Positions 27,839-63,382 of a stretch of DNA of 64,000 bases are shown here, piece by piece. The DNA is taken from contig DASZXC010000008.1 in NCBI GenBank assembly GCA_035546035.1, positions 5,202 to 69,201 on the forward strand. Reading direction: 5' to 3'. Numbering within the stretch: the stretch's first letter is position 1; each line of letters begins with the position of its first letter. This stretch comes from Minisyncoccota bacterium (GTDB lineage: Bacteria; Patescibacteriota; Minisyncoccia; Phycocordibacterales; UBA6065). The notes beneath the pieces are model-generated. The model was not told the origin of the DNA, searched no databases, and saw nothing but the letters and a program-made list of their open reading frames with translations. The position numbers were made by a program, and so were the translations under genes.

Positions 27839-30800
27839 TTAGCGGCGCAAAGCTATGCGAAACGAGTATTCTTCCACCTTCATTTCTTCAGCCTGCGGGA
27901 GATGGGCATGCTCTATGCCCGTGACGAGCGTTATCCTCTTTATATCGTGAAGGAACGCATGCGCGAGCTCTTTGCCCTTCTCATCCGAATCAAGGGCAAG
28001 GGAGACCTTGTCGTCCACGGTCAGATTCTCTTTCTTGCGAAGCTCCTGGACCGAGCGTATGAGGTCTCGGATCACGCCCTCCTTGCGGAGCCCTTCAGTC
28101 ACGTCCGTATCGAGAGCCGTTTCAGCGGCTATCGTATGGTCCACGCCGACGGCTTTGACGTTCACTTCGTCTTTGATGAGGTCGATGAGGTCGGCGCCCA
28201 GCGAGGCGTTCTTGATGACCAGCTTGGCGAGAGGCTGGCGGACCTTGATGTTCGCCTTCGATCGTTCCTGGAGAGCGATCGTCACGATCTTCCGCGTCTC
28301 TTCCATCGCCTTCACGATTTTTCCATCGACGGAGGCTTCTGCCGGCCAATCTGCGAGGTGTACGCTTTCGGGATCGTTCGAACGCCTGATACGGCTGAAG
28401 AGATAGTCGGCGTAGAAAGGAATGAAGGGCGCGGCTATTTTCGCGAATTCGGCGAGGACGAATCGGGTCGTGGAAAGAGCCGCCTCTTTGTCGGCGCGGT
28501 TGTCAGATTTGAATCGGTCGCGCGATCGGCGCAGGTACCACGTCGAAAGGTCGTCTACGAACGACATCAACGGTCGCGCGGCCTTATCGAGCTGATAGAA
28601 ATCGAGATATTCGGTCATCTCGTTTCTTGTCTCATTGAGGCGCGCGCGTATCCAGAGGTCAAGAACGCTCTTTGAATCGGTTCTCGATGCCTTTTCGCTC
28701 TCTCCCCTGTTCGCGTACATCTCATAGAAAGCGAGGACGTTGTCGAGGCGCTGGATGAGCTTCTTGGACACTTCGTCTACGCCTTTTTCAGAGAAGCAGA
28801 GGTCCTGAGCGGCCACGACCGGAGAGGAAAGCAGATAATAGCGGAGAGAGTCGGCGCCATATTTGCCGATGACTTCGAGCGGGTCGGGATAGTTATTGAG
28901 GCGCTTGGACATCTTCTCGCCGTCTTCAGCCAAGATGATGCCGTTCACGACGACGTTCTTGTACGGGCTCTTTCCGAAGAGACCGACGCCGAGGACCATC
29001 ATGGAATAGAACCAGCCGCGAGTCTGGTCTAGGCCTTCGGCGATGAAATCGGCGGGATAGCCCTTTACGCCGCCCAAAAGACCTCCAAGCCTGCCGTTCG
29101 GATCGAAATGCTCCAAAGCCTTGCCGCGATAGTTCGATTCGCCGTACGGCATCGAGCCCGATTCGAACCAACAGTCGAATACTTCCGCTACGCGGACAAG
29201 CTTTTCGCCGTCCGGCGCGACGCATTCGACCGTATCTATATACGGCCTATGGAGGTCGAGATCGAATCCCCTGTTATGCGGCAAGCGAACAAAGTCGAAC
29301 GGATGGCATTCGCCCGTTTTTTGGAAATAGCGGCGCTCGTCGTGGAGGATCTTGTCCTCGGACGCGGTCTCGCCTATCCCATGAAGGATCGTGTTCAGAG
29401 GCGAGCCGTGGCTCACGATGAGGATCTTCTTGCCCGAATATTTTCTATCTATATCGAACATCGCTTCGAAGACGCGCTTCTTCAAATCCACCGGCGTTTC
29501 CATACCCGGGAAGAGCCCGTGCGTGCGGACGTGACGATCCGTCTCGGCCCACAGCTTGCCTTCCCTGTCGGGACCGACGTTGTATTCGCGGAGGCGGACG
29601 TCATAGACGATCTCGTTCTCCGGTATGCCGCAGGCATCGGCTATCATGCGCGCCGTCTCTTTGGTGCGCTCGAAATCGGACGCGACGATGACGTCGACGC
29701 CTTGCGCGGCGATCTTTTTGGCGGCTTCAGCGATCTGCTGTCTGCCCTTTTCGGTGAGGCCGTAATTTTTGGAGAGACTTATGTTCGAATTCGAAACGCC
29801 GAGAGCGTTCGCCTTCGATTCGCCGTGGCGGATGAGCGTATATGAATTGCCTGATCGCTGTATGAGCTTCGCCAGATCGGATATACCCCCGATCGGATAG
29901 AGCTTGCCCGAATCGACTCCCTTCCAGACAGGGATAGGGGCGCCCCAGAAGCGCGAGCGCGATATGGCCCAGTCGCGGGCGCCTTCGAGCCATTTGCCGA
30001 AGCGCCCGTCGCGGATATCGTCCGGCGTCCAAGAGACTTTTTTGTTCGCAGCGACGAGCTTGTCCTTGAACAACGTGACGCGGACGAACCACGATGACGC
30101 AGCGTAATTGAGGAGCGGCGTGTCGCAGCGCCAGCAGTGGGGGTACGAGTGGACGATCTTCTTCTTGTCGAAGAGAAGGCCGTGATGAGCGAGCCATTTG
30201 ACAATCTCGATATCGGTCTTCTGATGACCGTCCTTTTCATCAGACTTGGGCTTGACCGGCTGACCCGCGAAATCGGCGACTTCCGGCTTGAACGTTCCGT
30301 TCATAGCCACGTGCTGGATGAAAGGCAGGTCGTTCGCCTGGCCGAGCTTCATGTCATCGTCGCCGAACGCCGGCGCTATATGCACGATGCCGGTACCGTC
30401 TTCGGTCGTGACGAAATCGGCGGCATATACCTTGAATCCGTTCTTTTCATCCTTGAGAGAGCCGTCGAGATAGTATGAGAACGCCGGCTCGTATCCGTCG
30501 CCGACGAGCTCGCGGCCCTTTATGACGGAGACGAGCGCGTGCTCCTTGCCCGCGAATACGTCGGCGACGCGGTCGCGCGCGACGATATATGTCGCATTCT
30601 CGTACGATACGCGGGCGTAATCGATATCAGCGCCTACGGCCAAGGCGACGTTTCCGGGAAGCGTCCACGGCGTCGTGGTCCAGGCGATGAAGTATTCATT
30701 CGGAGGAGTCCCCTTCCTCTTCATTTTGACGAATACGGATATGTCGGTGATGTCCTTGTATCCCTGATTCACCTCGAAATTGGCGAGCGTCGTCTCGCAT

Positions 30801-31363
30801 CGCGGACATATCTGCATAGACTTGAAGCCTTCGTAGACGAGACCTTTGTCGAAGAGCGTCTTGAACGCCCACCAGACGGACTGGGTGTATGCCGCGTCCA
30901 TGGTGCGATAGTCGTCATCCATGTCTACCCAGCGGCCGATGCGGGGTATGATCTTTCTCCAGTCATGGGCGTATCGAAGGACGCTCTCTTCCGCCACGGC
31001 ATTGAATCTCTCCATGCCGTAATCGACGATGTCTTTTCGCGATCTGAGGCCGAGCTCCTTTTCGACCAAGTTCTCTACCGGCAGGCCGTGACAGTCCCAG
31101 CCCCAGCGCCGCGCGACATGATACCCGCGCATAGTCTTGTAGCGCGGAACGGCGTCTTTGATGAACGAAGCCAGCATGTGGCCGTAATGTGGAAGGCCGT
31201 TCGCGAACGGCGGGCCGTCATAAAAGACGAATTCCTTGCCTTTTTTGTCGAGAGATTTCTGGAAGATCTCCTTTTCGTTCCAAAAAGAAAGTATCTTTTC
31301 CTCTATTTCGACCAGTTTGGTCTTCGGCTTGGTTTCCGGTTGGGTTTTGGGAGCGTCTGCCAT
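27839..31363 (-). CDS. ileS: Isoleucyl-tRNA synthetase (type 2) with an inserted histidine-phosphatase-like domain
   Basis: 1174 aa. PHYGH, WAISRSRFWGAPIPVW and KMSKR motifs are present. Confidence 0.9.
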   Translation of the reverse strand: MADAPKTQPETKPKTKLVEIEEKILSFWNEKEIFQKSLDKKGKEFVFYDGPPFANGLPHYGHMLASFIKDAVPRYKTMRGYHVARRWGWDCHGLPVENLVEKELGLRSRKDIVDYGMERFNAVAEESVLRYAHDWRKIIPRIGRWVDMDDDYRTMDAAYTQSVWWAFKTLFDKGLVYEGFKSMQICPRCETTLANFEVNQGYKDITDISVFVKMKRKGTPPNEYFIAWTTTPWTLPGNVALAVGADIDYARVSYENATYIVARDRVADVFAGKEHALVSVIKGRELVGDGYEPAFSYYLDGSLKDEKNGFKVYAADFVTTEDGTGIVHIAPAFGDDDMKLGQANDLPFIQHVAMNGTFKPEVADFAGQPVKPKSDEKDGHQKTDIEIVKWLAHHGLLFDKKKIVHSYPHCWRCDTPLLNYAASSWFVRVTLFKDKLVAANKKVSWTPDDIRDGRFGKWLEGARDWAISRSRFWGAPIPVWKGVDSGKLYPIGGISDLAKLIQRSGNSYTLIRHGESKANALGVSNSNISLSKNYGLTEKGRQQIAEAAKKIAAQGVDVIVASDFERTKETARMIADACGIPENEIVYDVRLREYNVGPDREGKLWAETDRHVRTHGLFPGMETPVDLKKRVFEAMFDIDRKYSGKKILIVSHGSPLNTILHGIGETASEDKILHDERRYFQKTGECHPFDFVRLPHNRGFDLDLHRPYIDTVECVAPDGEKLVRVAEVFDCWFESGSMPYGESNYRGKALEHFDPNGRLGGLLGGVKGYPADFIAEGLDQTRGWFYSMMVLGVGLFGKSPYKNVVVNGIILAEDGEKMSKRLNNYPDPLEVIGKYGADSLRYYLLSSPVVAAQDLCFSEKGVDEVSKKLIQRLDNVLAFYEMYANRGESEKASRTDSKSVLDLWIRARLNETRNEMTEYLDFYQLDKAARPLMSFVDDLSTWYLRRSRDRFKSDNRADKEAALSTTRFVLAEFAKIAAPFIPFYADYLFSRIRRSNDPESVHLADWPAEASVDGKIVKAMEETRKIVTIALQERSKANIKVRQPLAKLVIKNASLGADLIDLIKDEVNVKAVGVDHTIAAETALDTDVTEGLRKEGVIRDLIRSVQELRKKENLTVDDKVSLALDSDEKGKELAHAFLHDIKRITLVTGIEHAHLPQAEEMKVEEYSFRIALRR

Positions 31364-33712: not shown

Positions 33713-34147
33713 TTATTTTCCGGTGCTTCCGAAGCCTCGCTCGCCGCGCGCGGATTCGGAGAGCCCGCCTTCCTTCACTTCCTTGAACTCAACCTCTTCA
33801 TACGAATGGATGATCATCTGCGCTACCTTGTCGCCCGGCTCGAATATATGGGTCTCTTTGCCGAGATTCATGACGCCGACCTTTACTTCGCCCCTGTAGC
33901 CCGAATCTATTACGTTTCCATATGTGATGATACCGTGTTTGAACGAAAGGCCCGATTTTTCATATATGATCCCGACGCAACCCTTTGGAATCTCCATTTT
34001 GAGCCCCGTATTGATGGAAGCGCGTTCCATAGGCGCGAGCGTGATCTTTTCGCCTACGTAAAGGTCGAAGCCCGCATCGCCCGGAAGCGCGTATCGAGGC
34101 ACCGGCACGCCCTCGCGCATGAGGATTATTTTGAGGGTCTTTTTCAT
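33713..34147 (-). CDS. dut: dUTP diphosphatase
   Basis: 144 aa with dUTPase motifs (GDAGFDL, IDSGYRGEV, RGERGFGSTG). Confidence 0.9.
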   Translation of the reverse strand: MKKTLKIILMREGVPVPRYALPGDAGFDLYVGEKITLAPMERASINTGLKMEIPKGCVGIIYEKSGLSFKHGIITYGNVIDSGYRGEVKVGVMNLGKETHIFEPGDKVAQMIIHSYEEVEFKEVKEGGLSESARGERGFGSTGK

Positions 34148-34848
34148 TATTTCAGTATATAGGACGAGAGCATCGAATCAACCTCCGCGAAGACTTCGTC
34201 TTTCGAGCGATTCGCGTCAACGAACCTGACCTCTCCGGGGAAAAGCTTTCCGAAGGTTCGATACGCTTTCATGACTCGCTCGTGAAAATCGCGCTTACGC
34301 TCGTCGAAATGGTTTATCTCGCCCTTTCGTGCGGCAACGCGGCGGGCGCCTTCCTTCGGATCGACTTCTAGGATTATATGAAGATCGGGACGGATATTTT
34401 TATACACGGCCTTTCGCACTGCGAAGAAAAGTTTTTTGACGTTATATCCGCCCTCCTGCCCGCCTATCTGATAGCCCCATGACGTCGAATCGGATCGGTC
34501 GGTGACGAAATGTCTTCCGGAAGCGATGACCTCCTCGGCTTTTCTTGCCATATGATCGGCGCGACCGGCGGATACGAGCAGGAATTGCGTGATCGCATTG
34601 GCTTCTTTCGCATATTTCGACTGGAGCATCACGGCGCGAATCTCTTCAGCATACGGCGTGCCGCCAGGCTCTCGCGAGAATTCGATCGCGGGATATTTTC
34701 CCTTGAGCCTCTCTATGACCGTGCCCTTTCCCGATCCTTCGCCTCCGTCTATAACGATGAAATAGCCTTCCGAGGGATCATGCCTCTTGAATGCCTTGGA
34801 TATGGCGTTCGTTAAAAAGACTTTCGAGTAGAGAAACGCCGTTCTCAT
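34147..34848 (-). CDS. tmk: Thymidylate kinase
   Basis: 233 aa. P-loop IDGGEGSGKGT. REPGGT. An N-terminal extension of about 30 aa. Confidence 0.8.
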   Translation of the reverse strand: MRTAFLYSKVFLTNAISKAFKRHDPSEGYFIVIDGGEGSGKGTVIERLKGKYPAIEFSREPGGTPYAEEIRAVMLQSKYAKEANAITQFLLVSAGRADHMARKAEEVIASGRHFVTDRSDSTSWGYQIGGQEGGYNVKKLFFAVRKAVYKNIRPDLHIILEVDPKEGARRVAARKGEINHFDERKRDFHERVMKAYRTFGKLFPGEVRFVDANRSKDEVFAEVDSMLSSYILK

Positions 34849-34849
34849 G

Positions 34850-36019
34850 TTATTTCGCCCGCAAGACCCTATCTATCTGCTTCGCGAGGACGATCATGTC
34901 TTTCTCTTTCTTGCCGCGCGTGGTCTCACCAGCAGTACCGAGTCTGATACCTGATGGATCAACAGGCGGTCGCGCATCGAACGGAATGGCGTTCTTGTTC
35001 ACGATTATGCCGGCCTTTTCGAGCTTATCGGACGCTTCCCTGCCGCTGACACCCTGTGATGCCACGTCGAGAAGTATCAGATGGCTGTCAGTGCCGCCTG
35101 AAATGACCCTCCAGCCGAGCTTTACGAGCTCTGCAGCCAGCGTCCGCGCGTTTTTAATGACTTGCGCGGCATATTTTTTGAATGCGGGAGACGCAGCTTC
35201 TCTCAGGGCCACGGCGATGGCGGCCGTCTGATTCATATGAGGGCCGCCCTGGAGACCCGGGAATATAGCCTTGTCTATCTTCTTGTTGAGCTCGCGGGCG
35301 TCCTTTTTCGCGAAGACGAGAGCGCCGCGCGGGCCGCGGAGCGTCTTATGGGTCGTGGTCGTGACAATGTCGGCAAACGGGAATGGCGACGGATATGCCT
35401 TGCCCGCGACGAGACCCGCGATATGGGACATGTCGACCATGAGATATGCGCCGCACGCATCGGCGATCTCGCGAAATCTCTTCCAGTCGACGATACGCGG
35501 ATACGCCGTGAAGCCGGCGATGATCATCTTCGGCTTTTCGCGCAGAGCGATATCGCGCAACTCCGCATAGTCGAGGACTTCGGTTTCTTTCGAAACGCCA
35601 TATGGCACCTGGGTCCAGAATTTGCCCGTGGCAGAGACTTTATGGCCGTGAGTCAGATGTCCGCCTTGATCCAAAGACATGCCCATGACCTTTTCTCCTT
35701 TTTCCAAAAGCGCGACGTATACAGAGAGATTCGCCGGCGAACCGGATAATGCCTGCGTGTTTACATGCCATTCCTCCGGGTTAAGGCCGAATAACTTGAG
35801 AGCACGTTCAGCGGCCATGTCCTCTACCTTATCCACGATCGCATTGCCGCCGTAATAGCGCTTACCCGAATAACCTTCGGCATATTTATTCGTGAGCTCG
35901 GAACCGAGAGCGTCGAGTACGTCCTTCGACACATAGTTCTCCGACGCGATGAGATTGACGACCGATTTCTGCCTCTTCTGCTCCGCCTTGATCAGCTTTT
36001 CTGCCTGTTTGTCTTTCAT
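34850..36019 (-). CDS. glyA: Serine hydroxymethyltransferase
   Basis: 389 aa. LIASENY. The PLP-lysine region THKTLRGPRG. Confidence 0.95.
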   Translation of the reverse strand: MKDKQAEKLIKAEQKRQKSVVNLIASENYVSKDVLDALGSELTNKYAEGYSGKRYYGGNAIVDKVEDMAAERALKLFGLNPEEWHVNTQALSGSPANLSVYVALLEKGEKVMGMSLDQGGHLTHGHKVSATGKFWTQVPYGVSKETEVLDYAELRDIALREKPKMIIAGFTAYPRIVDWKRFREIADACGAYLMVDMSHIAGLVAGKAYPSPFPFADIVTTTTHKTLRGPRGALVFAKKDARELNKKIDKAIFPGLQGGPHMNQTAAIAVALREAASPAFKKYAAQVIKNARTLAAELVKLGWRVISGGTDSHLILLDVASQGVSGREASDKLEKAGIIVNKNAIPFDARPPVDPSGIRLGTAGETTRGKKEKDMIVLAKQIDRVLRAK

Positions 36020-36045
36020 AAGCCCATTCTATTACAATAAGCAGC

Positions 36046-37341
36046 ATGAGAGAAATCATCATCGTAGACGACCTTTCACCGGAGCCTGGAGCGATGGTGC
36101 AAGCGCTTTATTCCCGCGATCCCCGCAGCGTCAAAGACCATTTGGTCCAAGTCCGCGAGAAAGGCGCCGAGAAATTCATGTCATCGTATTACGTCGGCTA
36201 TGGGCACAAGTCCATCGGCGACTGCGGCACGACGTCTATATTCGCCGAGAACGTTTCGATGCTCGTCGCCAAGGCTATCCAGGATTGGCCTTTGTATAAC
36301 GGCCAGGAAGCCTCGACGCGATATCTCGATATGGCTGCGCAAGAAGTCGTCGATCCTGTCGGCACCCCTGACAGCAAGGCTATCCAGGACGAATGGATGC
36401 GATTCTATCGCTATGCCCTCGACAAGCTCGTGCCTGTCCTGAAACAGCGCTTCCCTATCCAGCCCGAACAGAAGGAGACAGTATATGAGAAAGCGGTCAA
36501 AGCTCGCGCATTCGACATCGCCCGCGGCTTCCTGCCTGCCGGCGTAACGACGTACGCCGCATGGCACACCAACCTCCGCCAGGCATACGATCACATCAAA
36601 GAGATGCGCCACCATCCATTGGCCGAAGTGCGCGAGACTGCCGCTTTGATCCATGACGAGCTCAAGAAAAAATATGCGTCGAGCTTCTCCCACAAGGAAT
36701 ATCCGATGGAAGAAGCATATGTCGAGGAGAGCATGAGGCAATTCGCGTTCTTCGACGATGCGGAAGCTGTCAAAGGGTTCTCATATGACGCGCGCATGCT
36801 CGACCTGAACGGCCTCGCAAAGCACCAGAAGCTCCTCGCCGAGAGGCCTGCGAAGGCAGAATTGCATCAGCGCATGCGCCAGTACGGCAATATAGTATTC
36901 GCTTTCCCTCTCGATTTCGGCTCGTACCGCGACCTTCAGCGCCACCGAAGCTGCATCCAGGAGATGCCCCTTCTCTCTACCCGTCACGGCTTCTATCCGT
37001 GGTATCTCGAACAGCTCCCTGAAGACCTGCGCGGCGAAGCCGTAAAGGTATTAAAGGAACAGGAAGATCGCATCGCGAGACTCGATGCGACGCCCGAGAT
37101 CAGGCAATATTACATCGCCATGGGATACACCGTTGCCGTAAAGATGACCGCGCCGCTTCCCGCAGCCGTCTATACCGCCGAATTACGCTCGTCGGACACC
37201 GTACACCCGACGCTTCGCGTCCAAGCGCAGAGGATGGGTGACGCGATCAAGGAAGCCGTTCCCGGCATCGCCATGCATCACGATCTGACGCCTGGCACCT
37301 GGAACATCAAGCGCGGCAATCACGATATCGTGAAGAAATAA
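36046..37341 (+). CDS. thyX: FAD-dependent thymidylate synthase ThyX-like, tandem duplication of two ThyX-like domains
   Basis: 431 aa. Domain 1 (about aa 1-212) has the ThyX-like ...NGQEASTRY block, but DWP sits where RHR is expected. Domain 2 (about aa 213-431) has RHR (aa 298-300, DLQRHRSCIQ) with a divergent downstream motif. Confidence 0.55.
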   Translation: MREIIIVDDLSPEPGAMVQALYSRDPRSVKDHLVQVREKGAEKFMSSYYVGYGHKSIGDCGTTSIFAENVSMLVAKAIQDWPLYNGQEASTRYLDMAAQEVVDPVGTPDSKAIQDEWMRFYRYALDKLVPVLKQRFPIQPEQKETVYEKAVKARAFDIARGFLPAGVTTYAAWHTNLRQAYDHIKEMRHHPLAEVRETAALIHDELKKKYASSFSHKEYPMEEAYVEESMRQFAFFDDAEAVKGFSYDARMLDLNGLAKHQKLLAERPAKAELHQRMRQYGNIVFAFPLDFGSYRDLQRHRSCIQEMPLLSTRHGFYPWYLEQLPEDLRGEAVKVLKEQEDRIARLDATPEIRQYYIAMGYTVAVKMTAPLPAAVYTAELRSSDTVHPTLRVQAQRMGDAIKEAVPGIAMHHDLTPGTWNIKRGNHDIVKK

Positions 37342-37401: not shown

Positions 37402-37845
37402 ATGGAAAAACTGAAAGTCTACGTCGCCCTGTCTCTGACCCATGTGAAGACGGAAGCGGAGAAAGACGAGGTTCGAGCATTCATGAAATGGCTCCCGGCG
37501 ACATTCGACGTCGAGATCCTGAAATGGGCGTTCGACCTCGAACGCTGGGAGCCCCAACCCGTTGCGGACATCTACGCATACGACACCGAGCGCGTAAAGG
37601 CCGCGGACCTCATGATCGTCCTGTATCTTTCGAACGACGGTTCGGACGGCCGCGGCGGCGAAGTCGTCAATCGGGTCGAGAACGGCGGCGGAAAGCCTGT
37701 CCTCGGCTTTGCCCGGGAAGGCGTGAGAGTGAGCCGCTATGCGGCCGACTGCCTGAAGGGAGCCGGAACGCCTATCCGGACTTTCAAGGAGTTCTCGGAA
37801 ACGGGACCTGCCATTTCCGAAGCCCTCGATCGCCTCCGCCGATGA
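37402..37845 (+). CDS. Nucleoside 2-deoxyribosyltransferase / DNPH1(Rcl)-like protein
   Basis: 147 aa with a Rossmann-like pattern: KVYVALSL..., ADLMIVLYLSNDGSDGRGGEV (candidate catalytic Glu), GKPVLGF. It is embedded in the dTMP cluster. Confidence 0.4.
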   Translation: MEKLKVYVALSLTHVKTEAEKDEVRAFMKWLPATFDVEILKWAFDLERWEPQPVADIYAYDTERVKAADLMIVLYLSNDGSDGRGGEVVNRVENGGGKPVLGFAREGVRVSRYAADCLKGAGTPIRTFKEFSETGPAISEALDRLRR

Positions 37846-37886: not shown

Positions 37887-38435
37887 TTATTTCATATTCG
37901 GATAGGTCTCTACCGACGGATCGACGATATCGAGCTTTACGCCCGCCTCCTTAAAGACCTCCTTGGAGCGCTTCGATGCATGATAGTCTTTAGCGGCCAC
38001 AACGCGGATGATGCCTGAATTTATCAGGATCTTCGCGCAGGTATAGCAGGGCGTCATATGGCAATAGAGCGTCGCGCCGTTCACCGGGACGCCGTCGCGC
38101 GCGGCATTGGCGATAGCGTTCTGCTCGGCATGGGTCGTCCTGATGCAGTGTTTCGACTGCGAGCCGTCTTCATGGACGACCGTGTGCATCTCGTGCCCGG
38201 CTTCGTCGCAGTGAGCGACGCCTGCCGGAGCGCCGACATAGCCGGTGACGAGTATGCGCTTGTCTTTGACGATGACGCAACCGGAACGGCCGCGATCGCA
38301 GGTTGCCCTCTCGCCTACCACGTCGGATATCTTGATAAAATATCCGTCCCACGACGGACGGACATGTTTCGCAGTGACCGGAGAAGGAATCGCCGCGGCT
38401 TTTTTCATGGTTTTCGCTTTGGAGCTTTTTGCCAT
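37887..38435 (-). CDS. dCMP deaminase (cytidine/deoxycytidylate deaminase family)
   Basis: 182 aa with the HAEQNAI and PCYTCAKIL zinc-binding motifs. Confidence 0.85.
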   Translation of the reverse strand: MAKSSKAKTMKKAAAIPSPVTAKHVRPSWDGYFIKISDVVGERATCDRGRSGCVIVKDKRILVTGYVGAPAGVAHCDEAGHEMHTVVHEDGSQSKHCIRTTHAEQNAIANAARDGVPVNGATLYCHMTPCYTCAKILINSGIIRVVAAKDYHASKRSKEVFKEAGVKLDIVDPSVETYPNMK

Positions 38436-41214: not shown

Positions 41215-42090
41215 TTACTCGGGTTTTTCCGCCGAGACCATAAGATTATCAAATAATGCCAGAACAGTCATCGGTCCGACGCCGCCGGGCACGGGAGAGA
41301 TGACTGAAACGATATCCGATACGGCCGCGAAATCGACGTCGCCAGCGAGAGATCGCTTCGGGATCCCTTCTTCCGATTTCGCTCCGGCGACGCTGTTGAT
41401 GCCGACATCGACGACGATGGCGCTCTTTTTTATGAAATCTTTGGTGACGTACGAAGGCTTGCCGATGGCGACGGCGACGATATCGGCTTCGCGGCTTATC
41501 CTCTGAGGCTCGGCTGTTTGAGAATGGATGACGGATACCCTCGCGCCCCTCGATTGAAAAAGTGACGCTATAGGGCCGCCGACGAGGCGCGATCGGCCGA
41601 ATACAGCGGCATTCTTCCCTCTTACGGAGATGTTATAGAAATCGAGGAGCATCATGACGCCCTTCGCGGTAGCGGGAATAAAACGCGGATTGCCCTGTTC
41701 GAGAAGCTTTTGGTTCTCGTCCGTGAGCCCGTCAACGTCTTTTTTCGGATCTATCGCATTTATAAGGGCAAGCTTATTGATATGCGCAGGCACCGGGAGC
41801 TGGACGATGATGCCGTGGATCTTTTTGTCGGCATTAAGAGCGACGATCTCCTCCAAGACGCCGTCCTGCGATGCATCTTCAGAGAATCGAACGTGCTCGA
41901 CCGATACGCCTATGGCCGCGGCGAATTTCTTCTTTTGCTCTATATATATGCTCGATTCCGGATTGTCGCCGATCTGGATTATGGCGAGACATGGCTTGAT
42001 ATGGCGCTTTCTTTCGAACGCGGTAACCCTTTCGGCGAGCTTCGCCTTGTGAAAATCGCGGGCTTTTTTTCCGTCGAGGAGTAATGGCAT
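41215..42090 (-). CDS. folD: Bifunctional methylenetetrahydrofolate dehydrogenase/cyclohydrolase
   Basis: 291 aa, FolD throughout (e.g. GRSRLVG). Confidence 0.9.
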   Translation of the reverse strand: MPLLLDGKKARDFHKAKLAERVTAFERKRHIKPCLAIIQIGDNPESSIYIEQKKKFAAAIGVSVEHVRFSEDASQDGVLEEIVALNADKKIHGIIVQLPVPAHINKLALINAIDPKKDVDGLTDENQKLLEQGNPRFIPATAKGVMMLLDFYNISVRGKNAAVFGRSRLVGGPIASLFQSRGARVSVIHSQTAEPQRISREADIVAVAIGKPSYVTKDFIKKSAIVVDVGINSVAGAKSEEGIPKRSLAGDVDFAAVSDIVSVISPVPGGVGPMTVLALFDNLMVSAEKPE

Positions 42091-52099: not shown

Positions 52100-52172
52100 G
52101 GGTGCCTAATGGGAATCGAACCCATGACGCCGGGACCACAATCCAGCGTTTTACCACTAAACTATAGGCACC
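52100..52172 (-). tRNA. tRNA-His (anticodon GTG) with genomically encoded G-1
   Basis: Manual fold. Extra 5' G opposite discriminator C. Acceptor GTGCCTA/TAGGCAC. Anticodon loop UUGUGGU. T-arm ATGGG/CCCAT. Confidence 0.7.
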
Positions 52173-52182
52173 ATTCTTTTGG

Positions 52183-52218
52183 AAAAGCACCGAACGGACG
52201 TACCGCTCGGTGCTTTTT
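52183..52218. terminator. Hairpin plus T-run between tRNA-His and tRNA-Leu
   Basis: agcaccga ... tcggtgct followed by ttttt. Confidence 0.45.
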
Positions 52219-52223
52219 CCGTG

Positions 52224-52305
52224 TGCGCGGAAGAGGACTTGAACCTCCATGCCTTGCGGCGCTACCACCTCAAGGTAGTGTGTCTGCCAATTCCACCATC
52301 CGCGC
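52224..52305 (-). tRNA. tRNA-Leu (anticodon GAG)
   Basis: Manual fold. Acceptor GCGCGGA/TCCGCGC with discriminator A. Long variable arm. Anticodon loop UUGAGGU. Confidence 0.7.
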
Positions 52306-52377
52306 ATCTATGACCGCGTGGCCATAATAGCCGAGAGCGTCCTCAAAATCAAATCCCGCGCGATGCGCGGGATTTTG

Positions 52378-52794
52378 TTACTTTGCCGGAACCGCTTCCG
52401 CCTTCGGAGCCTCTGCAAGAGGCACAGGCTCTTCCTTTGCCGTACGGAGGTTTCGCATCTGGCGACGGACTGCCTTCGCTGCCTTCTCGCGTACGAAGTA
52501 GAGCTTCGAGCGGCGCACCTTCGAGCGGCGGATCACTTCGATCTCGTCGATCATAGGGGTGTAGAGCGGGAAAATCCTCTCTACGCCGACGCCGTCGATG
52601 ACTTTTCGGACGGTGAACGTAGCACCCGGCTCGTCGCCGTGCTTTCGCGAGAGGATAAGGCCTTCGAACGCCTGGAGGCGGCTCTTGTCGCCTTCCTTGA
52701 TCTTCTGCCAGACGCGGACGGTGTCGCCGGATCGGAGGCCGAGCTTCACTCGAGCCGCCATGTCCACAGGAGAAGTGATGATTTTGCTTTCCAT
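52378..52794 (-). CDS. rplS: 50S ribosomal protein L19
   Basis: 138 aa. GDTVRVWQKIKEGDKSRLQAFEG...TFTVRKV..GVGVERIFPL...IEVIRRSKVRRSKLYF. Confidence 0.9.
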   Translation of the reverse strand: MESKIITSPVDMAARVKLGLRSGDTVRVWQKIKEGDKSRLQAFEGLILSRKHGDEPGATFTVRKVIDGVGVERIFPLYTPMIDEIEVIRRSKVRRSKLYFVREKAAKAVRRQMRNLRTAKEEPVPLAEAPKAEAVPAK

Positions 52795-52912
52795 GCTGGT
52801 AATTTCTTGGTCTTTAAACGTGGACGTTAATCTAACACACGGCCTTAATTATCGCAAGAAAGTTGAGTTTTTAGGCGAAATTGGGTATCTTTGCTACGCG
52901 GTTGCTTCATAT

Positions 52913-52988
52913 GCGCCCTTAGCTCAGTTGGTAGAGCAGCTCATTTACACTGAGAAGGTCGGGGGTTCAAGTCCCTCAGGGCGCACCA
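52913..52988 (+). tRNA. tRNA-Val (anticodon TAC), CCA encoded
   Basis: Manual fold. Acceptor GCGCCCT/AGGGCGC with discriminator A and CCA. Anticodon loop UUUACAC. Confidence 0.8.
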
Positions 52989-52998
52989 GAGAGAAGGC

Positions 52999-53035
52999 GC
53001 GAAAAAGCCCGGCGTACGCCGGGCTTTTTCGCGCA
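52999..53035. terminator. Perfect palindromic bidirectional terminator
   Basis: gcgaaaaagcccggcg ta cgccgggctttttcgc. Confidence 0.6.
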
Positions 53036-53037
53036 TG

Positions 53038-53109
53038 TCCCCTCGGTTGGAATCGAACCAACATAACCGGCTTAGAAGTCCGGTGTTCTATCCATTGAAC
53101 TACAAGGGG
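53038..53109 (-). tRNA. tRNA-Arg (anticodon TCT)
   Basis: Manual fold. D-arm GTTC/GAAC. Anticodon loop CUUCUAA. T-arm GTTGG/CCAAC. Acceptor CCCCTTG/CGAGGGG, which implies an unusual C1:G72 pair. Confidence 0.55.
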
Positions 53110-53144
53110 GTCAAAGTGAGGATAGCAAGGAAAACCCTCCCCTG

Positions 53145-53426
53145 CTATATAGACGGATCCTGTATGGATCTCGCGGCGGCTGACGCCGAAACCGATTCCC
53201 TCTGCGACAGGCCTGCGGCGACAGAACTTATATCCGCGCGATTCAGGATATTCTGCGGAGCGGCTGCGCCCATGGCCGAATCCCCCGCCGATACGAGCGA
53301 GCGATAGAGGGCGAAATCTGCGAGAGCGACGATGGCGAGGCCGAGCGCGAGGCATGCGAGGCACATATACCAGTCGGTCGCCGGATCCTTCGCGAACTTA
53401 TTGAATGTGAGGCGCGTCTTTTTCAT
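53145..53426 (-). CDS. Small membrane-anchored protein, last gene of the pilus-assembly operon (PilP-like position)
   Basis: 93 aa with one TM helix, downstream of the pilO-like gene. Confidence 0.35.
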   Translation of the reverse strand: MKKTRLTFNKFAKDPATDWYMCLACLALGLAIVALADFALYRSLVSAGDSAMGAAAPQNILNRADISSVAAGLSQRESVSASAAARSIQDPSI

Positions 53427-53427
53427 A

Positions 53428-53952
53428 TCAATCGGCGACGTATATGACGAGGTCAGCGTTAAAGCTCCATTCCTTGTCCTGGCCCTTGCCGAGGGCGACG
53501 TCGTCTACGCGGAGCGCGTACGGCATCGCTTCTACGGCCGCAAGGAATCCGACGATGTCATTCCAGGAGCCCGAGCCGCCCATATGAAACGTCAGGGGCC
53601 GCGGCAATGCCGGGTCGCCGCTCTCGTCGAGGTCGAGCGAGCTTAAGTCGGCCTTTATTCCTGCGGATCTGGCGCGCGCTTCGACGGTATCTATGAATGC
53701 GGGTATGCCGTCTTTGGTTATGAAATGGCCGTCGATCGTCGCAAGCTCGTCTTTAGAATCGCGAAGCGCGTCTTTGATGGAGATGAGATACGCGTCGTTC
53801 GCTGCGGCGTTCTCCGCCTGCGCCGATATCGCCGCGATATCGGACTTCATGGCATTGCTCTTGTATGCGATGAATATCCATGCCGCGAGGAACGCGACCG
53901 CGAGGATTGCGGATATAGTGACGAACGCGGTATACGGAGTGCGGAGCTTCAT
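53428..53952 (-). CDS. pilO: Type IV pilus assembly protein PilO-like
   Basis: 174 aa, bitopic with a coiled-coil then a ferredoxin-like C-terminal domain. Its position after pilN supports the call. Confidence 0.5.
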   Translation of the reverse strand: MKLRTPYTAFVTISAILAVAFLAAWIFIAYKSNAMKSDIAAISAQAENAAANDAYLISIKDALRDSKDELATIDGHFITKDGIPAFIDTVEARARSAGIKADLSSLDLDESGDPALPRPLTFHMGGSGSWNDIVGFLAAVEAMPYALRVDDVALGKGQDKEWSFNADLVIYVAD

Positions 53953-53959
53953 ATATTAG

Positions 53960-54493
53960 TTAGAAGGATGAATCGATAGTGATACTGAAGCCGATATTCG
54001 ACGATTTCGCGAGGCTCGACACCGGCAGGGCTACGTTCTGGAACGAAGGCTCGCCCTGAAGGCTCTTGGAAAAGGCGACGAGCGCGTCGCGGGTCGCGGC
54101 AGAGCCGGAGACGAGTATGCCGCCCGGGCCTTCTGAGCGCTTGAGCGTCATGCCCGTGAGGATTATCCCTGGCGTGATCTGGCCGACAAGGCGGTCCAGG
54201 ACGGATACGATCGACTTCGAATCGGCGACCGTCTTAAGGACGCCGATCTTCGCCTTGATGTCTCTGATCCTCGATTCGAGGGATGCGTTCCCTTCCGCGC
54301 CGGCGGCCGTCGTCTTCGTCGCGGATAGAGAGGCTGCCGCCCTTTTCGCTGACAGGATTATGTACGACGGCGCCGCGAGGGCGGCGGCCGAAAGCATGAG
54401 CACCGCGCCTAACGCGAAAGCGACGGCGAATACCCTCTTTCGGTATTCCTTCTCTACTTCAGGCCTGTACGATCGCGGGAGAAACGTGAACAT
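53960..54493 (-). CDS. pilN: Type IV pilus assembly protein PilN-like
   Basis: 177 aa. The N-terminal basic segment, a TM helix and a periplasmic domain are typical of PilN. Confidence 0.5.
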   Translation of the reverse strand: MFTFLPRSYRPEVEKEYRKRVFAVAFALGAVLMLSAAALAAPSYIILSAKRAAASLSATKTTAAGAEGNASLESRIRDIKAKIGVLKTVADSKSIVSVLDRLVGQITPGIILTGMTLKRSEGPGGILVSGSAATRDALVAFSKSLQGEPSFQNVALPVSSLAKSSNIGFSITIDSSF

Positions 54494-54497
54494 ACGA

Positions 54498-55577
54498 TTA
54501 AAGATGAGCGCCTATGAGGGAGCCGTAATCGAGCGACGACCTTTCGTCGAGATCCGGCAGGTCTCTGTCCGGTGACAGGACGTTCGTCCATACTGACCCT
54601 ACCTTTGCGGGCACTTTCGACGACAGCGACACGTATCGCGCAAGCCCCGGCACGCGTGCCGCGCTTCCGGCCAAAATGATATCCGCGACGTCCTCCGCCC
54701 CCCCGTTCTTGCGAGCCTCGGTGTGGAAATAGATTATCACTTTGCCGAGCTCGTCGCGGAGCGTCGAGAAGACCGGAAGCATGGCGTCAAAGAATTCCGC
54801 GTCAGGAACCTGCTTTGACGCAGGCGCGCCTGAAACCAAGGCTTTCGCATCTTCGGACGAGACATCGAACGTCTTTCCGACCGCGGTCTCGAGGTCGTTC
54901 GAGCCGACTTCGATCGAAGAGCTGAAAACGACCTTGCCTTTCTCTACGATGAAGACAACCGAATGGCGCGTATGGATATGGAGCACCGCATGGGCCCCCT
55001 TGTCGCCCTGCGGAACGAGCGCTCGCGCGAGCGAGCGCGACTCGGTCTCGAACGAGACGGGCATCAAGCCTCCGGACGAGAGGATATCCAAATATTGCTG
55101 GACGACGACTTCGGAGACGGCCGATACGGCGACATGGGTCTCGCCGCGGACTTCGTCGACGGCGATGACGTCGTATTCGAACAATGCCTCCGAAGGCGGG
55201 ATCGGCACGTTCTCTTCCAAAGCCGATTCGATCGCCGGGCGGATCTCCGCAGGGCTCATCGTCGGTACTTTCAGTTTGAATACGTACGCGTCGCCTTCAT
55301 GGATGACGACGCGGACCGCGCCGTATCGCTTGTCGTCCGCGAACGATTTAAGCGCCGCGGCCGCTTCGGCGAGAGCCTTATCGCCCTTCTCCTCCTTGGA
55401 GCTCATATGGATGCGCGGAAAAGGCAGGATGCCGTACGCTTTCGGCCTGACCTTGCCTTTGGATCGGGAGACTTCGAAATACCGGAGGGTGCCGTCGGTG
55501 ATATCCACTGACACGTTCGAGAGCACGAGGAGCTTAGGAACCGGAAATGCCCTTTTGATAAAGACTGCGGGTTTCAC
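54498..55577 (-). CDS. pilM: Type IV pilus assembly protein PilM (actin-like ATPase fold)
   Basis: 359 aa. Actin/FtsA-like fold signatures. Located upstream of pilN and pilO. Confidence 0.6.
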   Translation of the reverse strand: MKPAVFIKRAFPVPKLLVLSNVSVDITDGTLRYFEVSRSKGKVRPKAYGILPFPRIHMSSKEEKGDKALAEAAAALKSFADDKRYGAVRVVIHEGDAYVFKLKVPTMSPAEIRPAIESALEENVPIPPSEALFEYDVIAVDEVRGETHVAVSAVSEVVVQQYLDILSSGGLMPVSFETESRSLARALVPQGDKGAHAVLHIHTRHSVVFIVEKGKVVFSSSIEVGSNDLETAVGKTFDVSSEDAKALVSGAPASKQVPDAEFFDAMLPVFSTLRDELGKVIIYFHTEARKNGGAEDVADIILAGSAARVPGLARYVSLSSKVPAKVGSVWTNVLSPDRDLPDLDERSSLDYGSLIGAHL

Positions 55578-55589
55578 GCAGAGATTATA

Positions 55590-56204
55590 CTACATTTTCG
55601 GAGCTCCTTTCGGGCGCCTGCCGCGCAGCCATTCGACGGCGACGGGTATAAGCGAGACGAGGATGATGCCGAGGATTATGTATTCCAAATAGTTTTCCGC
55701 CGGCGGGTATGCGATACCGAGAAAGTAGCCAAAGAGCGTCAAAAGGAGCACCCAAAGCGTGCCGCCGATGATATTGAACGTCACGAACGTGCCGTATCTC
55801 ATCGTGCCTATACCGGCGACGATCGGAGCGAACGTGCGCACGACCGGGACGAAGCGGGCCAGGACGATAGCCTTGGGGCCATGCTCTTCATAGAACTTGC
55901 GCGACCTTTCGACGTGCTTTTTATGGAAAAAGAACGAATCCTCGCGGGAGAAAAGCGCCGGGCCGGTCCTTCGCCCGAATGCGTATCCCACATTGTCGCC
56001 GATAACGGCCGCGAGAGCGCAGCCGATGACGAGCCAGACGATGCTAAAATGTCCCTGCGACGCGAAGAGTCCCGCGGTAAAGAGAAGCGAGTCGCCTGGC
56101 AGGAAGAAGCCGAAAAAGAGCCCCGATTCAGCAAAGACTACGGCGAATATGCCGATAAGCCCTACGGCGGTTATAAGGTGTTGAGGTTCAAGATATTGGA
56201 GCAT
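55590..56204 (-). CDS. DedA-family (VTT/SNARE-associated domain) membrane protein
   Basis: 204 aa with the LPGDSLLFTAG motif and conserved DedA topology. Confidence 0.75.
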   Translation of the reverse strand: MLQYLEPQHLITAVGLIGIFAVVFAESGLFFGFFLPGDSLLFTAGLFASQGHFSIVWLVIGCALAAVIGDNVGYAFGRRTGPALFSREDSFFFHKKHVERSRKFYEEHGPKAIVLARFVPVVRTFAPIVAGIGTMRYGTFVTFNIIGGTLWVLLLTLFGYFLGIAYPPAENYLEYIILGIILVSLIPVAVEWLRGRRPKGAPKM

Positions 56205-56217
56205 AGAGATAGAACAG

Positions 56218-56619
56218 CTACTTCGCCCTGGTCCCTTCAGGGATGTCGCCCTGCGGTTCGAGGAGCGAGAATTTGCCGTCAGGCGTCGAGACCGCGAAAA
56301 GCATGCCGTTCGAATCGAAGCCTTTGATCTTGCGAGGCTCGAGGTTGGTCACGAACATGCACTTTTTGCCGACGAGCGAGGCTAGTTCTGGAAAATACAT
56401 GGAAATACCCGACACGATCTGGCGGATATCGCGCTTCATCTCGGTCATAGCGACTTCGGCGACGGGCGCGCCTTCGATGGCTATCGTCGCGACCTGTTCG
56501 GACGCAGGGCCGAAATCGACGGAGAGCTTTAAGAGCTTGTCCGTCTCCGGAATCTTCTCGGCGGAAAGTATCTTCCCTACCTTTATCTCGACCTTCGCGA
56601 AATCGTCGTATGAGATCAT
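56218..56619 (-). CDS. tRNA-binding domain protein (CsaA/YgjH family)
   Basis: 133 aa. FAKVEIKVGKILSAEKIPETDKLLKLSVDFG and an OB-fold tRNA_bind domain. Confidence 0.7.
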   Translation of the reverse strand: MISYDDFAKVEIKVGKILSAEKIPETDKLLKLSVDFGPASEQVATIAIEGAPVAEVAMTEMKRDIRQIVSGISMYFPELASLVGKKCMFVTNLEPRKIKGFDSNGMLFAVSTPDGKFSLLEPQGDIPEGTRAK

Positions 56620-56623
56620 GGGT

Positions 56624-57034
56624 TTATGATGATTTTGTCCTGTCTATATAACTCTGCAAGATGATAGAAGCGGCGGACGCGTCTATCATATCCGTTTTTC
56701 CGCTTTTCCCAAGCGTATGCCCGACCTGCGCCGCCTGATGCGACGAAAGCAGCTCCGGCTCATATACCACTACGACGCCGGCCTCGCGTTCGAGCTCGGC
56801 GACGAAGCGCCTGACGTCGGCCATGATCGGATTGTCCTTCATACCGAAGTCTTTCGACTCGCCGACGACGGCCGTGCCGATGCCGTGGCCCTTGATGAGG
56901 TCTTTGAGCTCGCGCATGAGGTAATTGTCGTTCGGCAGAACGGCTTTTGGGAACGCCATCATGGCTTTATCGTCCGAAATGGCGATGCCCACCCTCTTTT
57001 TTCCGTAATCTATGCCCAGGATTCGCATGGTCAT
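56624..57034 (-). CDS. ruvX: Putative pre-16S rRNA nuclease / Holliday junction resolvase YqgF (RuvX)
   Basis: 136 aa. ILGIDYGKKRVGIAISD and the RNase H-like fold motifs. Confidence 0.85.
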   Translation of the reverse strand: MTMRILGIDYGKKRVGIAISDDKAMMAFPKAVLPNDNYLMRELKDLIKGHGIGTAVVGESKDFGMKDNPIMADVRRFVAELEREAGVVVVYEPELLSSHQAAQVGHTLGKSGKTDMIDASAASIILQSYIDRTKSS

Positions 57035-57077
57035 ATAAGTGTACGGGTTCTCGTCCTAAATAAAAAGCTGCGGGTCT

Positions 57078-57653
57078 TTAGGCGGACCGCTGCGCCATGC
57101 GCTTCAGCGACTCTGCGAAATCGGGTAAGGCTGCGCCCACGATAACCGCGTCCGCGCCGTCTCGTATATCTTCGACCGTTCTTATATTGCTCGCCTGGCA
57201 CAGCCAGCCCGCGAATAGCGTTCGAGCCTCTTCGAACGTTTCCCGTTTCAGGCTTCCGTCGGACAGATCCCTGCTGTTCCAGACAACCTTGAGGCTTTTC
57301 GGAACGGCCTTCAACTCCTCGAGCGTAAGGGGCTCGATCAGGCATTTTTCCGCATGCACGCCTGGAATGCGGCCGACCACAAGGACGTAATCGGCCCCAG
57401 CTTTGACGGCTCGGTCGATCTCGCCATCGGTCGCGTGGATGCCTTTGGCGAGAATCGGTTTGCGGGTAAGCGATCTCGCTCTCTCGATCAATGCAAAAGA
57501 TCCGCCCCAGCGCGGGTCGGTATGGACTGAGACCATGTCTCCGATCTCGTTCGCAAGGGAGAACAGCTCGTCCCAGCTCTTCTCGGACTTGAAGCCGAAC
57601 GGCGACCGAGTCTTCACTTCGGCGATAATCTGGACGTTCCTGTGCATATTCAA
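57078..57653 (-). CDS. Indole-3-glycerol-phosphate synthase-like TIM-barrel protein (short form)
   Basis: 191 aa. IIAEVKTRSPFG, KGIHATDGEI, WNSRDL and IVGAALP match IGPS (TrpC) motifs. It lacks the usual N-terminal extension. Confidence 0.5.
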   Translation of the reverse strand: MNMHRNVQIIAEVKTRSPFGFKSEKSWDELFSLANEIGDMVSVHTDPRWGGSFALIERARSLTRKPILAKGIHATDGEIDRAVKAGADYVLVVGRIPGVHAEKCLIEPLTLEELKAVPKSLKVVWNSRDLSDGSLKRETFEEARTLFAGWLCQASNIRTVEDIRDGADAVIVGAALPDFAESLKRMAQRSA

Positions 57654-57662
57654 AGATTCGAG

Positions 57663-57749
57663 CGGATGGGGTGAGATTCGAACTCACGGTCCCCTTGCGA
57701 GGACGACAGTTTTCAAGACTGTTCCGTTAGACCGCTCCGGCACCCATCC
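57663..57749 (-). tRNA. tRNA-Ser (anticodon TGA)
   Basis: Manual fold. Acceptor GGATGGG/CCCATCC with discriminator G. Long variable arm. Anticodon loop CUUGAAA. Confidence 0.7.
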
Positions 57750-57790
57750 GTGCCTCAACGTTACAACATATGATGCTATAATCAAGGGCG

Positions 57791-58246
57791 ATGAAAGAGT
57801 TCAGGTGGCAGACCCTCGAATACGTCTATAGCGAGAAAAGCTCCGACTGGTATTGGACCGTCGGGATCGTTTCCGTCGCGATCGCCGTCGTCGCCGTCAT
57901 ATTCGGAGACGCGCTCTTCGGCGTCGTGGTCGCGATCGGCGCGTTCTCGCTCACCATGCTCTCCTCGCGCCAGCCGAAAACAATATCGGTCGAGGTGACC
58001 GACAAGGGCGTCGCGATAGACAAAACCCTGTATCCGTATCCTGCCCTCGACGCGTTTTCGGTGGATGAAGACCATCATCACGGACCGAGGCTCCTCCTTA
58101 AGTCCAAGAAGGTCGTCATGCCCCTCATAACGGTTCAGGTCGCGACAGACCCCGACGCTCTGCGCGCGTTTCTCGTCACGCACCTCAAGCAGGAAACTTT
58201 CGACCAGGGCATCCTACACGCGGCCCTCGAAAGGATCGGATTCTGA
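57791..58246 (+). CDS. Hypothetical membrane protein
   Basis: 151 aa with two TM helices near the N-terminus. Confidence 0.4.
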   Translation: MKEFRWQTLEYVYSEKSSDWYWTVGIVSVAIAVVAVIFGDALFGVVVAIGAFSLTMLSSRQPKTISVEVTDKGVAIDKTLYPYPALDAFSVDEDHHHGPRLLLKSKKVVMPLITVQVATDPDALRAFLVTHLKQETFDQGILHAALERIGF

Positions 58247-58291
58247 ATCTCCTTTTACTTTTCGCGATTTTCCTGTAAGTTAGTCTGGCAC

Positions 58292-58366
58292 GCTCTCGTC
58301 GTTCAATGGATAGGACACTTCCCTGCGAAGGAAGAAATCCAGGTTCGATTCCTGGCGGGAGCACCA
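58292..58366 (+). tRNA. tRNA-Arg (anticodon GCG), CCA encoded
   Basis: Manual fold. Acceptor GCTCTCG/CGGGAGC with discriminator A and CCA. Anticodon stem CTTCC/GGAAG. Anticodon loop CUGCGAA. Confidence 0.6.
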
Positions 58367-58367
58367 A

Positions 58368-58406
58368 ATAGCAAAATCGCCCCATTCAGGGCGATTTTGC
58401 TATTTG
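58368..58406. terminator. Perfect 13-bp hairpin; bidirectional terminator for tRNA-Arg (+) and rpsT (-)
   Basis: agcaaaatcgccc cattca gggcgattttgct. Confidence 0.6.
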
Positions 58407-58663
58407 ATCTTCTTGATGAGAGCCGAGAGGCGGGACTTTTTCCTCGAAGCCGCGTTCGGCTTGATGAAATGGGTCTTTGCGGCTTTGTCGAGTTCTGCGT
58501 ATGCCTTCGGGAGGAGCTTCATAGCCTCGCCCTTATTGCCCTGCGATACGAGCTTCTTGATCTGCTTCGTCACGTCAGAGACCGCGTCGCGGTGATGGAT
58601 ATTGAACACGCGCTTCTTTTTCGATGCGCGGAGGGCCTTCTTTGCTGAAGATGTGATTGCCAT
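58400..58663 (-). CDS. rpsT: 30S ribosomal protein S20
   Basis: 87 aa, MAITSSAKKALRASKKKRVFN... The whole protein is basic and alpha-helical. Confidence 0.9.
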   Translation of the reverse strand: MAITSSAKKALRASKKKRVFNIHHRDAVSDVTKQIKKLVSQGNKGEAMKLLPKAYAELDKAAKTHFIKPNAASRKKSRLSALIKKIK

Positions 58664-58743
58664 ATGTGCGCGTCAGAGTACCAAAAAGCCTGAAAAAATG
58701 CAATGAAACGGCACTTTTTCCGCGGATTCGGTATACTGGGAGC

Positions 58744-59310: not shown

Positions 59311-59320
59311 CGATACAGAG

Positions 59321-60598: not shown

Positions 60599-60627
60599 AA
60601 AAATAGCCCGGCGAACCGGGCTATTGC
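60597..60627. terminator. Bidirectional terminator
   Basis: aaaaatagcccgg cgaa ccgggctatt. Confidence 0.55.
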
Positions 60628-60638
60628 ATTGATATATT

Positions 60639-60956: not shown

Positions 60957-61009
60957 ATCATTAAATTACCCCGCTTTTCCCATCTGTCAATATATAGTAG
61001 GTTAGAGCC

Positions 61010-61939: not shown

Positions 61940-61943
61940 AGCC

Positions 61944-62816: not shown

Positions 62817-62825
62817 TCGCGCGAT

Positions 62826-63302: not shown

Positions 63303-63309
63303 TTCGATG

Positions 63310-63382
63310 TCCGCCCACCAGGAATCGAACCTGGGACCATCTCCTTAAAAGGGAGCTGCTCTACCGACTGAGCTATGGGCGG
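63310..63382 (-). tRNA. tRNA-Lys (anticodon TTT)
   Basis: Manual fold. D-arm GCTC/GAGC. Anticodon loop CUUUUAA. T-arm CCAGG/CCTGG. Acceptor CCGCCCA/TGGGCGG with discriminator A, giving an unusual C1:G72. Confidence 0.65.

Follow-up and report, generated by a model that had tools for sequence, protein, structure and literature searches.

A fused two-domain ThyX with complementary losses of active-site motifs, a predicted thymidylate synthase of a large family

Introduction

In many bacteria thymidylate is made solely by ThyX, a drug target whose mechanism remains under debate. Canonical ThyX is a homotetramer with subunits of about 220-250 aa, whereas one gene in the window (the whole stretch of DNA that was analysed, 64 kb) encodes a single polypeptide, about 430 aa long, whose two domains are not equivalent. 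The preliminary description of this DNA read the product as a tandem-duplicated ThyX, whose first half keeps the EASTRY block and has DWP where RHR is expected, and whose second half keeps RHR with a shifted and divergent downstream motif. It proposed that a fused protein with such complementary losses keeps only a subset of the active sites. This locus raises the question of whether both halves are ThyX and whether a chain in which neither half carries the whole motif can still build an active site.

The residues to be looked for are given by the structure of ThyX from Mycobacterium tuberculosis (Mtb), in which site 1 is built from three subunits (PMC6514825). Subunit A provides R95-H96-R97, which contact the FAD phosphates, ribityl and isoalloxazine and dUMP, and R199, which contacts dUMP (PMC6514825). 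Subunit B provides S71 and R190, which bind the FAD phosphates, and subunit C provides R87, S105 and R107 for dUMP, the backbone of Q103 and the lid Y108 (PMC6514825). We refer to these contributions as roles A, B and C. The ORF is present as the preliminary description gave it, together with the peptide strings that it cited, and is listed here with its two halves.

36046..37341, forward strand: fused two-domain ThyX gene, ATG start, 431 aa plus stop
36046..36681, forward strand: half 1 (aa 1-212), ThyX domain keeping roles B and C, RHR absent (by Pfam Thy1 and hhalign)
36682..37338, forward strand: half 2 (aa 213-431), highly divergent ThyX domain with role A only (by AF2 and Foldseek)

Both halves are ThyX folds

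Profile searches revealed two stretches in the whole protein that match Pfam Thy1 (PF02511), with 60 bits. Half 1 alone scored 51 bits (E 2e-13), and half 2 alone scored 13.4 bits (E 0.065), which is below the threshold, over profile positions 48-190. The NCBIfam thyX equivalog TIGR02170 gave 22.1 bits, under its cut-off of 87.9, and phmmer with the whole 431-aa protein found no ThyX match among PDB sequences. These weak scores and the missing phmmer match indicate that the 431-aa protein is a very divergent relative of ThyX.

The family profile of half 1 matched Mtb and Corynebacterium glutamicum ThyX (E about 7e-6), and hhalign of half 1 with Mtb ThyX gave a probability of 94% (E 1e-7). The family profile of half 2 found no ThyX match among PDB sequences by HMM search, and hhalign of half 2 against a mycobacterial ThyX alignment of low diversity (sequences about 90% identical) was not significant (E 0.57). 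Fifteen of 30 half-2 homologues individually match Pfam Thy1, the best with E 2e-6, and no other family recurs among them. A GGACT identity for half 2 (Pfam, E 0.004) was rejected, as it was found in only one of the 30 homologues.

Structure prediction placed half 2 more clearly. The AF2 model of half 2 alone (30 homologues) has a pLDDT of 92.8, and Foldseek with this model against the PDB returned 150 matches at E<=1e-3, the best with E 6.8e-6. The 50 matches listed of these 150 are all ThyX (PBCV-1, Thermotoga maritima, Thermus thermophilus) or the ThyX-like PolB, with TM scores of 0.55-0.59 at 12-15% identity. The AF2 model of the full protein (50 homologues) has a pLDDT of 89.5 and a pTM of 0.87, which suggests a defined packing of the two halves in the model. 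Both halves run through the same elements in the same order: strand, helix, motif, long helices, strand, helix, helix. Foldseek with the full model against the PDB found ThyX structures only, each aligned over about 220 columns, which corresponds to one half. Thus, both halves are ThyX folds. When each half was compared with ThyX (PF02511) separately, ThyX was recognised in both and not in one half only, half 1 by Pfam and hhalign and half 2 by AF2, Foldseek and the 15 of 30 homologues that match Thy1.

Complementary distribution of active-site residues

Residues of half 1 were mapped by aligning half-1 family alignments to Mtb ThyX, with both profile and hhalign, and conservation was scored across 347 full-length family members aligned with MAFFT. 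The mapping of half 2 rests on fold, motif register and conservation, since its profile and hhalign comparisons with ThyX were not significant. The resulting features, all on the forward strand, are listed below with family conservation.

36205..36213, forward strand: H54-K55-S56, equivalent to Mtb H69/S71, role B, FAD phosphate contact; H 98%, S 99%
36283..36291, forward strand: D80-W81-P82 at the canonical RHR position, role A lost; D 90%, W 49% (variable), P 71%
36307..36324, forward strand: E88-A-S90-T-R92-Y93, role C, dUMP loop and Tyr lid; E 99%, S 100%, R 100%, Y 97%
36523..36525, forward strand: R160, equivalent to Mtb R172 by alignment; R 97%
36577..36579, forward strand: R178, equivalent to Mtb R190 by alignment, role B, FAD phosphate; R 92%
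36928..36948, forward strand: R295-D296-L-Q-R299-H300-R301, RHR motif, role A, FAD and dUMP contacts; R295, D296, R299 and R301 100%
36976..36987, forward strand: S311-T-R-H314, degenerate remnant at the position of the S-x-R-Y loop, role C lost; variable
37186..37218, forward strand: R381...H387...R391, equivalent to Mtb R199/T. maritima R174 (uracil-binding Arg, role A) and the following helix, by hhalign register; R381 100%, H387 100%, R391 97%
37300..37329, forward strand: conserved C-terminal tail W-x-I/V-K-R423-G-x-Q-D-I, of low pLDDT in the monomer model; R423 100%, G424 98%

In half 1, D80-W81-P82 lies exactly under R95-H96-R97 of Mtb ThyX, as the preliminary description had read from the motif, and S90/R92/Y93 lie under S105/R107/Y108. 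The set E88/S90/R92/Y93 corresponds to T. maritima E86/S88/R90/Y91 and to Mtb Q103/S105/R107/Y108. M72 stands at R87, and the position of R199 is non-conserved. In half 2, R295-D296-L-Q-R299-H300-R301 corresponds to T. maritima R74-Q75-x-x-R78-H79-R80 and is preceded by a strand-helix unit, as is the RHR position of half 1. The S-T-R that follows lies 10 residues past R301, compared with 8 in canonical ThyX and in half 1 (an offset of +2), and it is not conserved in the family (T57/S20 and K28/R21). This agrees with the earlier reading of the downstream motif as shifted and divergent. The optimal alignment of half 2 to Mtb ThyX, whose score is not significant, sets RHR on RHR, R381 on R199, Q354 on R172 and P372 on R190. 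The T. maritima motif A73-R74-Q75-W-F-R78-H79-R80...E86-L-S88-G-R90-Y91 was confirmed in the PDB sequence; its first part is matched by half 2 and its second part by half 1.

The three roles are thus divided between the halves. Role A is carried by half 2 with R299, R301, R381, R295 and D296, which are all 100% conserved (n=347), and is lost from half 1, where the R199 equivalent is variable. Role B belongs to half 1 (S56, R178, H54) and is lost from half 2, which has P372 at the R190 position. Role C also belongs to half 1 (S90, R92, Y93, E88) and is lost from half 2, where residues 311-314 vary. The equivalent of R172 is an arginine in half 1 and Q354 in half 2. The equivalents of H69, S71, RHR, S105, R107, Y108, R190 and R199 are present over the two halves and are 92-100% conserved except for H300. 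Of the canonical ligands, Mtb R87 alone, which binds the dUMP phosphate, has no equivalent in either half; M72 of half 1 stands at this position and is M, I or L in 93% of the family. No canonical ThyX counterpart was assigned to the C-terminal tail.

The contiguous motif RHRxxSxxxxSxR occurs in neither domain; half 1 reads DWP...STRY, and in half 2 RHR is not followed by a conserved SxR. The same split is found in phage homologues at 22-35% identity, in which the E/S/R/Y set of half 1 and R381/H387/R391 of half 2 are invariant. The complementary losses seen in the window's protein recur across the family alignment (n=347) and, as judged from the sequences, they are under selection.

The central histidine of the half-2 motif deserves a separate remark. 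H300 (36943-36945) is part of R-H-R in the window's protein, and most of its closest relatives have R-Q-R. Family-wide, the position is H in 70% and Q in 29%, which suggests that the central His of the ThyX motif is replaceable in the two-domain family.

Predicted assembly and active sites

We consider, with a probability of about 0.7, that the gene encodes the organism's flavin-dependent thymidylate synthase, a single-chain pseudo-heterodimer that forms a dimer of chains with two complete sites. Half 2 would be limited to role A and half 1 to roles B and C. Two fused chains would pair into a pseudo-tetramer with the half-2 domains on a diagonal, in which two complete FAD/dUMP sites would form, one per chain, each combining the half 2 of a single chain with the half-1 domains of the two chains. 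The remaining two of the four pockets would be dead. The predicted reaction is the formation of dTMP from dUMP, CH2-THF and NADPH.

This arrangement comes from D2 symmetry. When site 1 of the canonical tetramer is written as (a:A, b:B, c:C), the others are (B,A,D), (C,D,A) and (D,C,B). Because role a needs half 2 and roles b and c need half 1, placing half 2 at A and D and half 1 at B and C is the only placement that would give complete sites, and by symmetry from the published roles it would give exactly two, sites 1 and 4. The earlier proposal that a subset of active sites is kept fits this pattern: with the subunit roles of PMC6514825, symmetry predicts a pseudo-tetramer with two of four sites complete. 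We infer the dimerisation, the site count and the catalytic activity of the two-domain ThyX.

A functional ThyX could also be assembled in another way, as a monomer, a tetramer of fused chains or some other geometry, still with one site per chain. The invariant R24 and, in the C-terminal tail, the invariant R423 could rebuild the site differently, and the absence of an equivalent of Mtb R87 would be in keeping with such a change. However, both halves keep the complete ThyX fold, and a lone chain cannot occupy the B and C positions, because these come from different canonical subunits and both map to half 1. We therefore regard another assembly as unlikely. It is a tentative idea, too, that the degenerate pockets are retained by selection as sites for another ligand, such as NADPH, folate or a regulatory nucleotide, which would make the protein a division-of-labour enzyme; the invariant residues R24, Y320 and H387 and, in the tail, R423 may then serve this second function. 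If the pockets are re-used, FDTS chemistry would need neither four sites nor the paired-FAD arrangement.

Genomic context and predicted function

The fused thyX gene lies among genes of dTMP synthesis; dUTPase, tmk, glyA, dCMP deaminase and folD are all less than 8 kb away. Neighbours were counted within +/-4 kb in 80 related loci.

33713..34147, reverse strand: dUTPase (Pfam PF00692), near in 43 of 80 related loci
34147..34848, reverse strand: thymidylate kinase, Tmk (Pfam PF02223), near in 22 of 80
34850..36019, reverse strand: glyA (SHMT), divergent neighbour and supplier of CH2-THF (Pfam SHMT, E 4e-160), in 26 of 80
37887..38435, reverse strand: dCMP deaminase (Pfam PF00383), near in 45 of 80
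41215-42090: folD

The dCMP deaminase gene of related loci is often directly upstream of thyX on the same strand. A metagenomic homologue of 704 aa (P0279) joins thymidylate kinase (PF02223) to the fused ThyX in a three-domain dTMP/dTDP enzyme, and the phage homologue Tunturi_5 gp50 adjoins dCMP deaminase and dUTPase. No ThyA or canonical ThyX was detected elsewhere in the 64-kb window, which is weak evidence because the window is just 64 kb long. This gene context, the Tmk fusion and the missing second synthase in the window suggest that the protein is probably a functional thymidylate synthase.

Instead of a dTMP synthase, the protein could be a flavin methylase of ThyX type that acts on another substrate or yields another product, for example a PolB-like methylase of UMP or dCMP or an enzyme of base modification. 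PolB (PDB 4p5a) is among the structural matches, the score is far under the thyX equivalog cut-off, and homologues are carried by jumbo phages, a group with some base-modifying members. On the other hand, the uracil and dUMP ligands S90, R92, Y93, R381, R295 and R299 are invariant, and the tight linkage to the genes for dCMP deaminase, dUTPase, SHMT and Tmk, which recurs in related loci, points, together with the Tmk fusion, to the conversion of dUMP to dTMP. No second thymidylate synthase was detected in the window, which counts weakly in the same direction. A changed substrate is thus improbable. PolB itself, a UMP/dUMP C5-methylase of polyoxin biosynthesis, shares the ThyX fold with the fused protein, but it is single-domain, stands in a secondary-metabolite context and has another physiological substrate, and the context here suggests no such role.

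Several other features of the window were observed. The start codons of glyA (36019, reverse strand) and thyX (36046, forward strand) diverge with 26 nt between them (36020-36045). This gap implies that their promoters lie inside each other's coding sequence or that transcription occurs in another mode. Directly downstream of thyX is an ORF of 147 aa (37402-37845, forward strand) with weak similarity to nucleoside 2-deoxyribosyltransferase (E 0.13) and without an NCBIfam match or a PDB sequence match; it is near thyX in only one of the 80 related loci. The isoleucyl-tRNA synthetase (1174 aa, 27839-31363, reverse strand) contains a histidine-phosphatase domain (PF00300, PGAM-like) at aa 509-664 (E 1e-27). 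Such an insertion, here between the two tRNA-synt_1 stretches, is unusual in an aminoacyl-tRNA synthetase. The window also contains seven tRNA genes (His, Leu, Val, Arg x2, Ser, Lys) spread across about 11 kb (52100-63382), which is more in keeping with a small bacterial (CPR) chromosome than with a phage.

Origin of the two halves and distribution of the family

How the two domains came to lie in one chain is less clear than their identity. Comparison of half 1 with half 2 by hhalign was not significant with a close alignment (E 0.23) and marginal with a diverse alignment (E 1.4e-3, probability 17%). With a half-half E of just 1.4e-3, tandem duplication and fusion of already diverged thyX paralogues are not separable. 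Of the earlier term "tandem-duplicated", therefore, the presence of two ThyX domains in one chain stands, and the duplication itself stays an inference. The extreme divergence of half 2 in sequence might also be expected if a single half made up the entire enzyme and its partner were a pseudo-domain of structural or regulatory function without catalytic residues. This is very improbable, since the full residue set is found in neither half: half 1 lacks RHR and the conserved uracil-binding Arg, which are in half 2 (the RHR Arg residues and R381, 100%), and half 2 lacks S-x-R-Y.

The 431-aa protein has more than 4500 word-sharing homologues. The best 120 of these are nearly all 425-453 aa long, three shorter entries being truncated or partial, and they are named FAD-dependent thymidylate synthase and come from Paceibacterota, Parcubacteria or Patescibacteria. 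At 50% identity, 1911 clusters match with E<=1e-3, of which 489 reach E<=1e-30. Relatives of the two-domain ThyX are encoded in at least 565 GTDB species genomes. The closest 80 of these are mostly CPR (Paceibacterota, Falkowbacteria, Peribacteria/Peregrinibacteria, Gracilibacteria, Uhrbacteria and others) or unclassified MAGs, and a minority are labelled Gammaproteobacteria, Bacillota or Bdellovibrionales. Two-domain ThyX is also found in jumbo Vibrio phages, Microcystis phages and the Tunturiibacter phage Tunturi_5, as in the following examples.

L081, 2974-4359: two-domain ThyX of jumbo Vibrio phage vB_VmeM-Yong, annotated hypothetical
L082, 2887-4362: two-domain ThyX of Microcystis phage Ma-LMM01, gp020
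L083, 2465-4021: two-domain ThyX of Tunturiibacter phage Tunturi_5, gp50

Superposition of the BFVD entry A0A6B7EUB9 with the full model gives a TM score of 0.91. The search for similar fused proteins in related lineages, which the preliminary description had called for, thus found them widely, in at least 565 species genomes and in phages. An artefact in which a sequencing or assembly frameshift merged adjacent thyX genes is refuted, since thousands of independent homologues have equal length and align over the full length, and the gene is fused in 80 of 80 loci from different genomes and in phage genomes too. The fused ThyX is not peculiar to the window's genome but belongs to a very large, already annotated family, and it is apparently the thymidylate synthase that CPR/Patescibacteria normally use.

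Comparison with known systems

Canonical ThyX, or FDTS (PF02511, EC 2.1.1.148), known from T. maritima TM0449, M. tuberculosis Rv2754c and PBCV-1 A674R, has the fold of both halves. Its catalytic residue set equals the sum of the two halves except for Mtb R87, and the pathway context is alike. The sum shares RHR, R74, S88, R90, Y91 and R174 in T. maritima numbering and S71 and R190 in Mtb numbering. The fused protein differs from canonical ThyX in that RHRxxSxxxxSxR is split, the Mtb R87 equivalent is absent and the TIGR02170 cut-off is failed. Furthermore, canonical ThyX has four sites with paired FADs, whereas symmetry predicts two sites with unpaired FADs here.

A close parallel in evolutionary logic is the monomeric herpesvirus-type dUTPase, in which a homo-oligomeric enzyme with interface sites was duplicated and fused, with complementary motif loss and fewer sites. 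Fold and reaction are unrelated to those of ThyX, and the dUTPase is a true monomer with one site, whereas the fused ThyX would still need a dimer of chains. The chlamydial ThyX, of about 530 aa, has been assayed and may be of the two-domain fused type, and it has been stated to be too divergent for phylogenies. A homologue search seeded with a 532-aa protein (P0266) gave no chlamydial names among the relatives.

ThyX domain duplication was noted in Chloroflexi in 2009 by Valas and Bourne, who described it as uncharacterised and present in "a few species" and gave no residue analysis (PMC3224940). Their duplicated ThyX is of the same kind of architecture by description, with two ThyX domains per polypeptide, and the window's family, with at least 565 species genomes, is far wider than the "few species" of that report (PMC3224940). 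Beyond this 2009 remark, the literature searched contained no account of the two-domain architecture, of its complementary losses or of the number of sites, and no biochemical characterisation of any member of the two-domain family. The two-domain ThyX appears never to have been characterised.

Significance

The evidence from sequence and predicted structure supports a real enzyme with an ordinary predicted function, dTMP synthesis, and an under-described two-domain architecture in which the domains are complementarily degenerate. Reconstructions of CPR pathways depend on recognising the fused ThyX, because equivalog-level models miss it. The fused ThyX is a clear example of how a homo-oligomer becomes a fused pseudo-heteromer by complementary loss. 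It also has clear experimental value. In the homotetramer, each mutation strikes all roles in the four sites, so that the roles cannot be mutated independently, whereas in a natural single-chain ThyX with non-equivalent domains roles A, B and C are mutable independently. Furthermore, the fused ThyX would show directly whether two isolated sites suffice.
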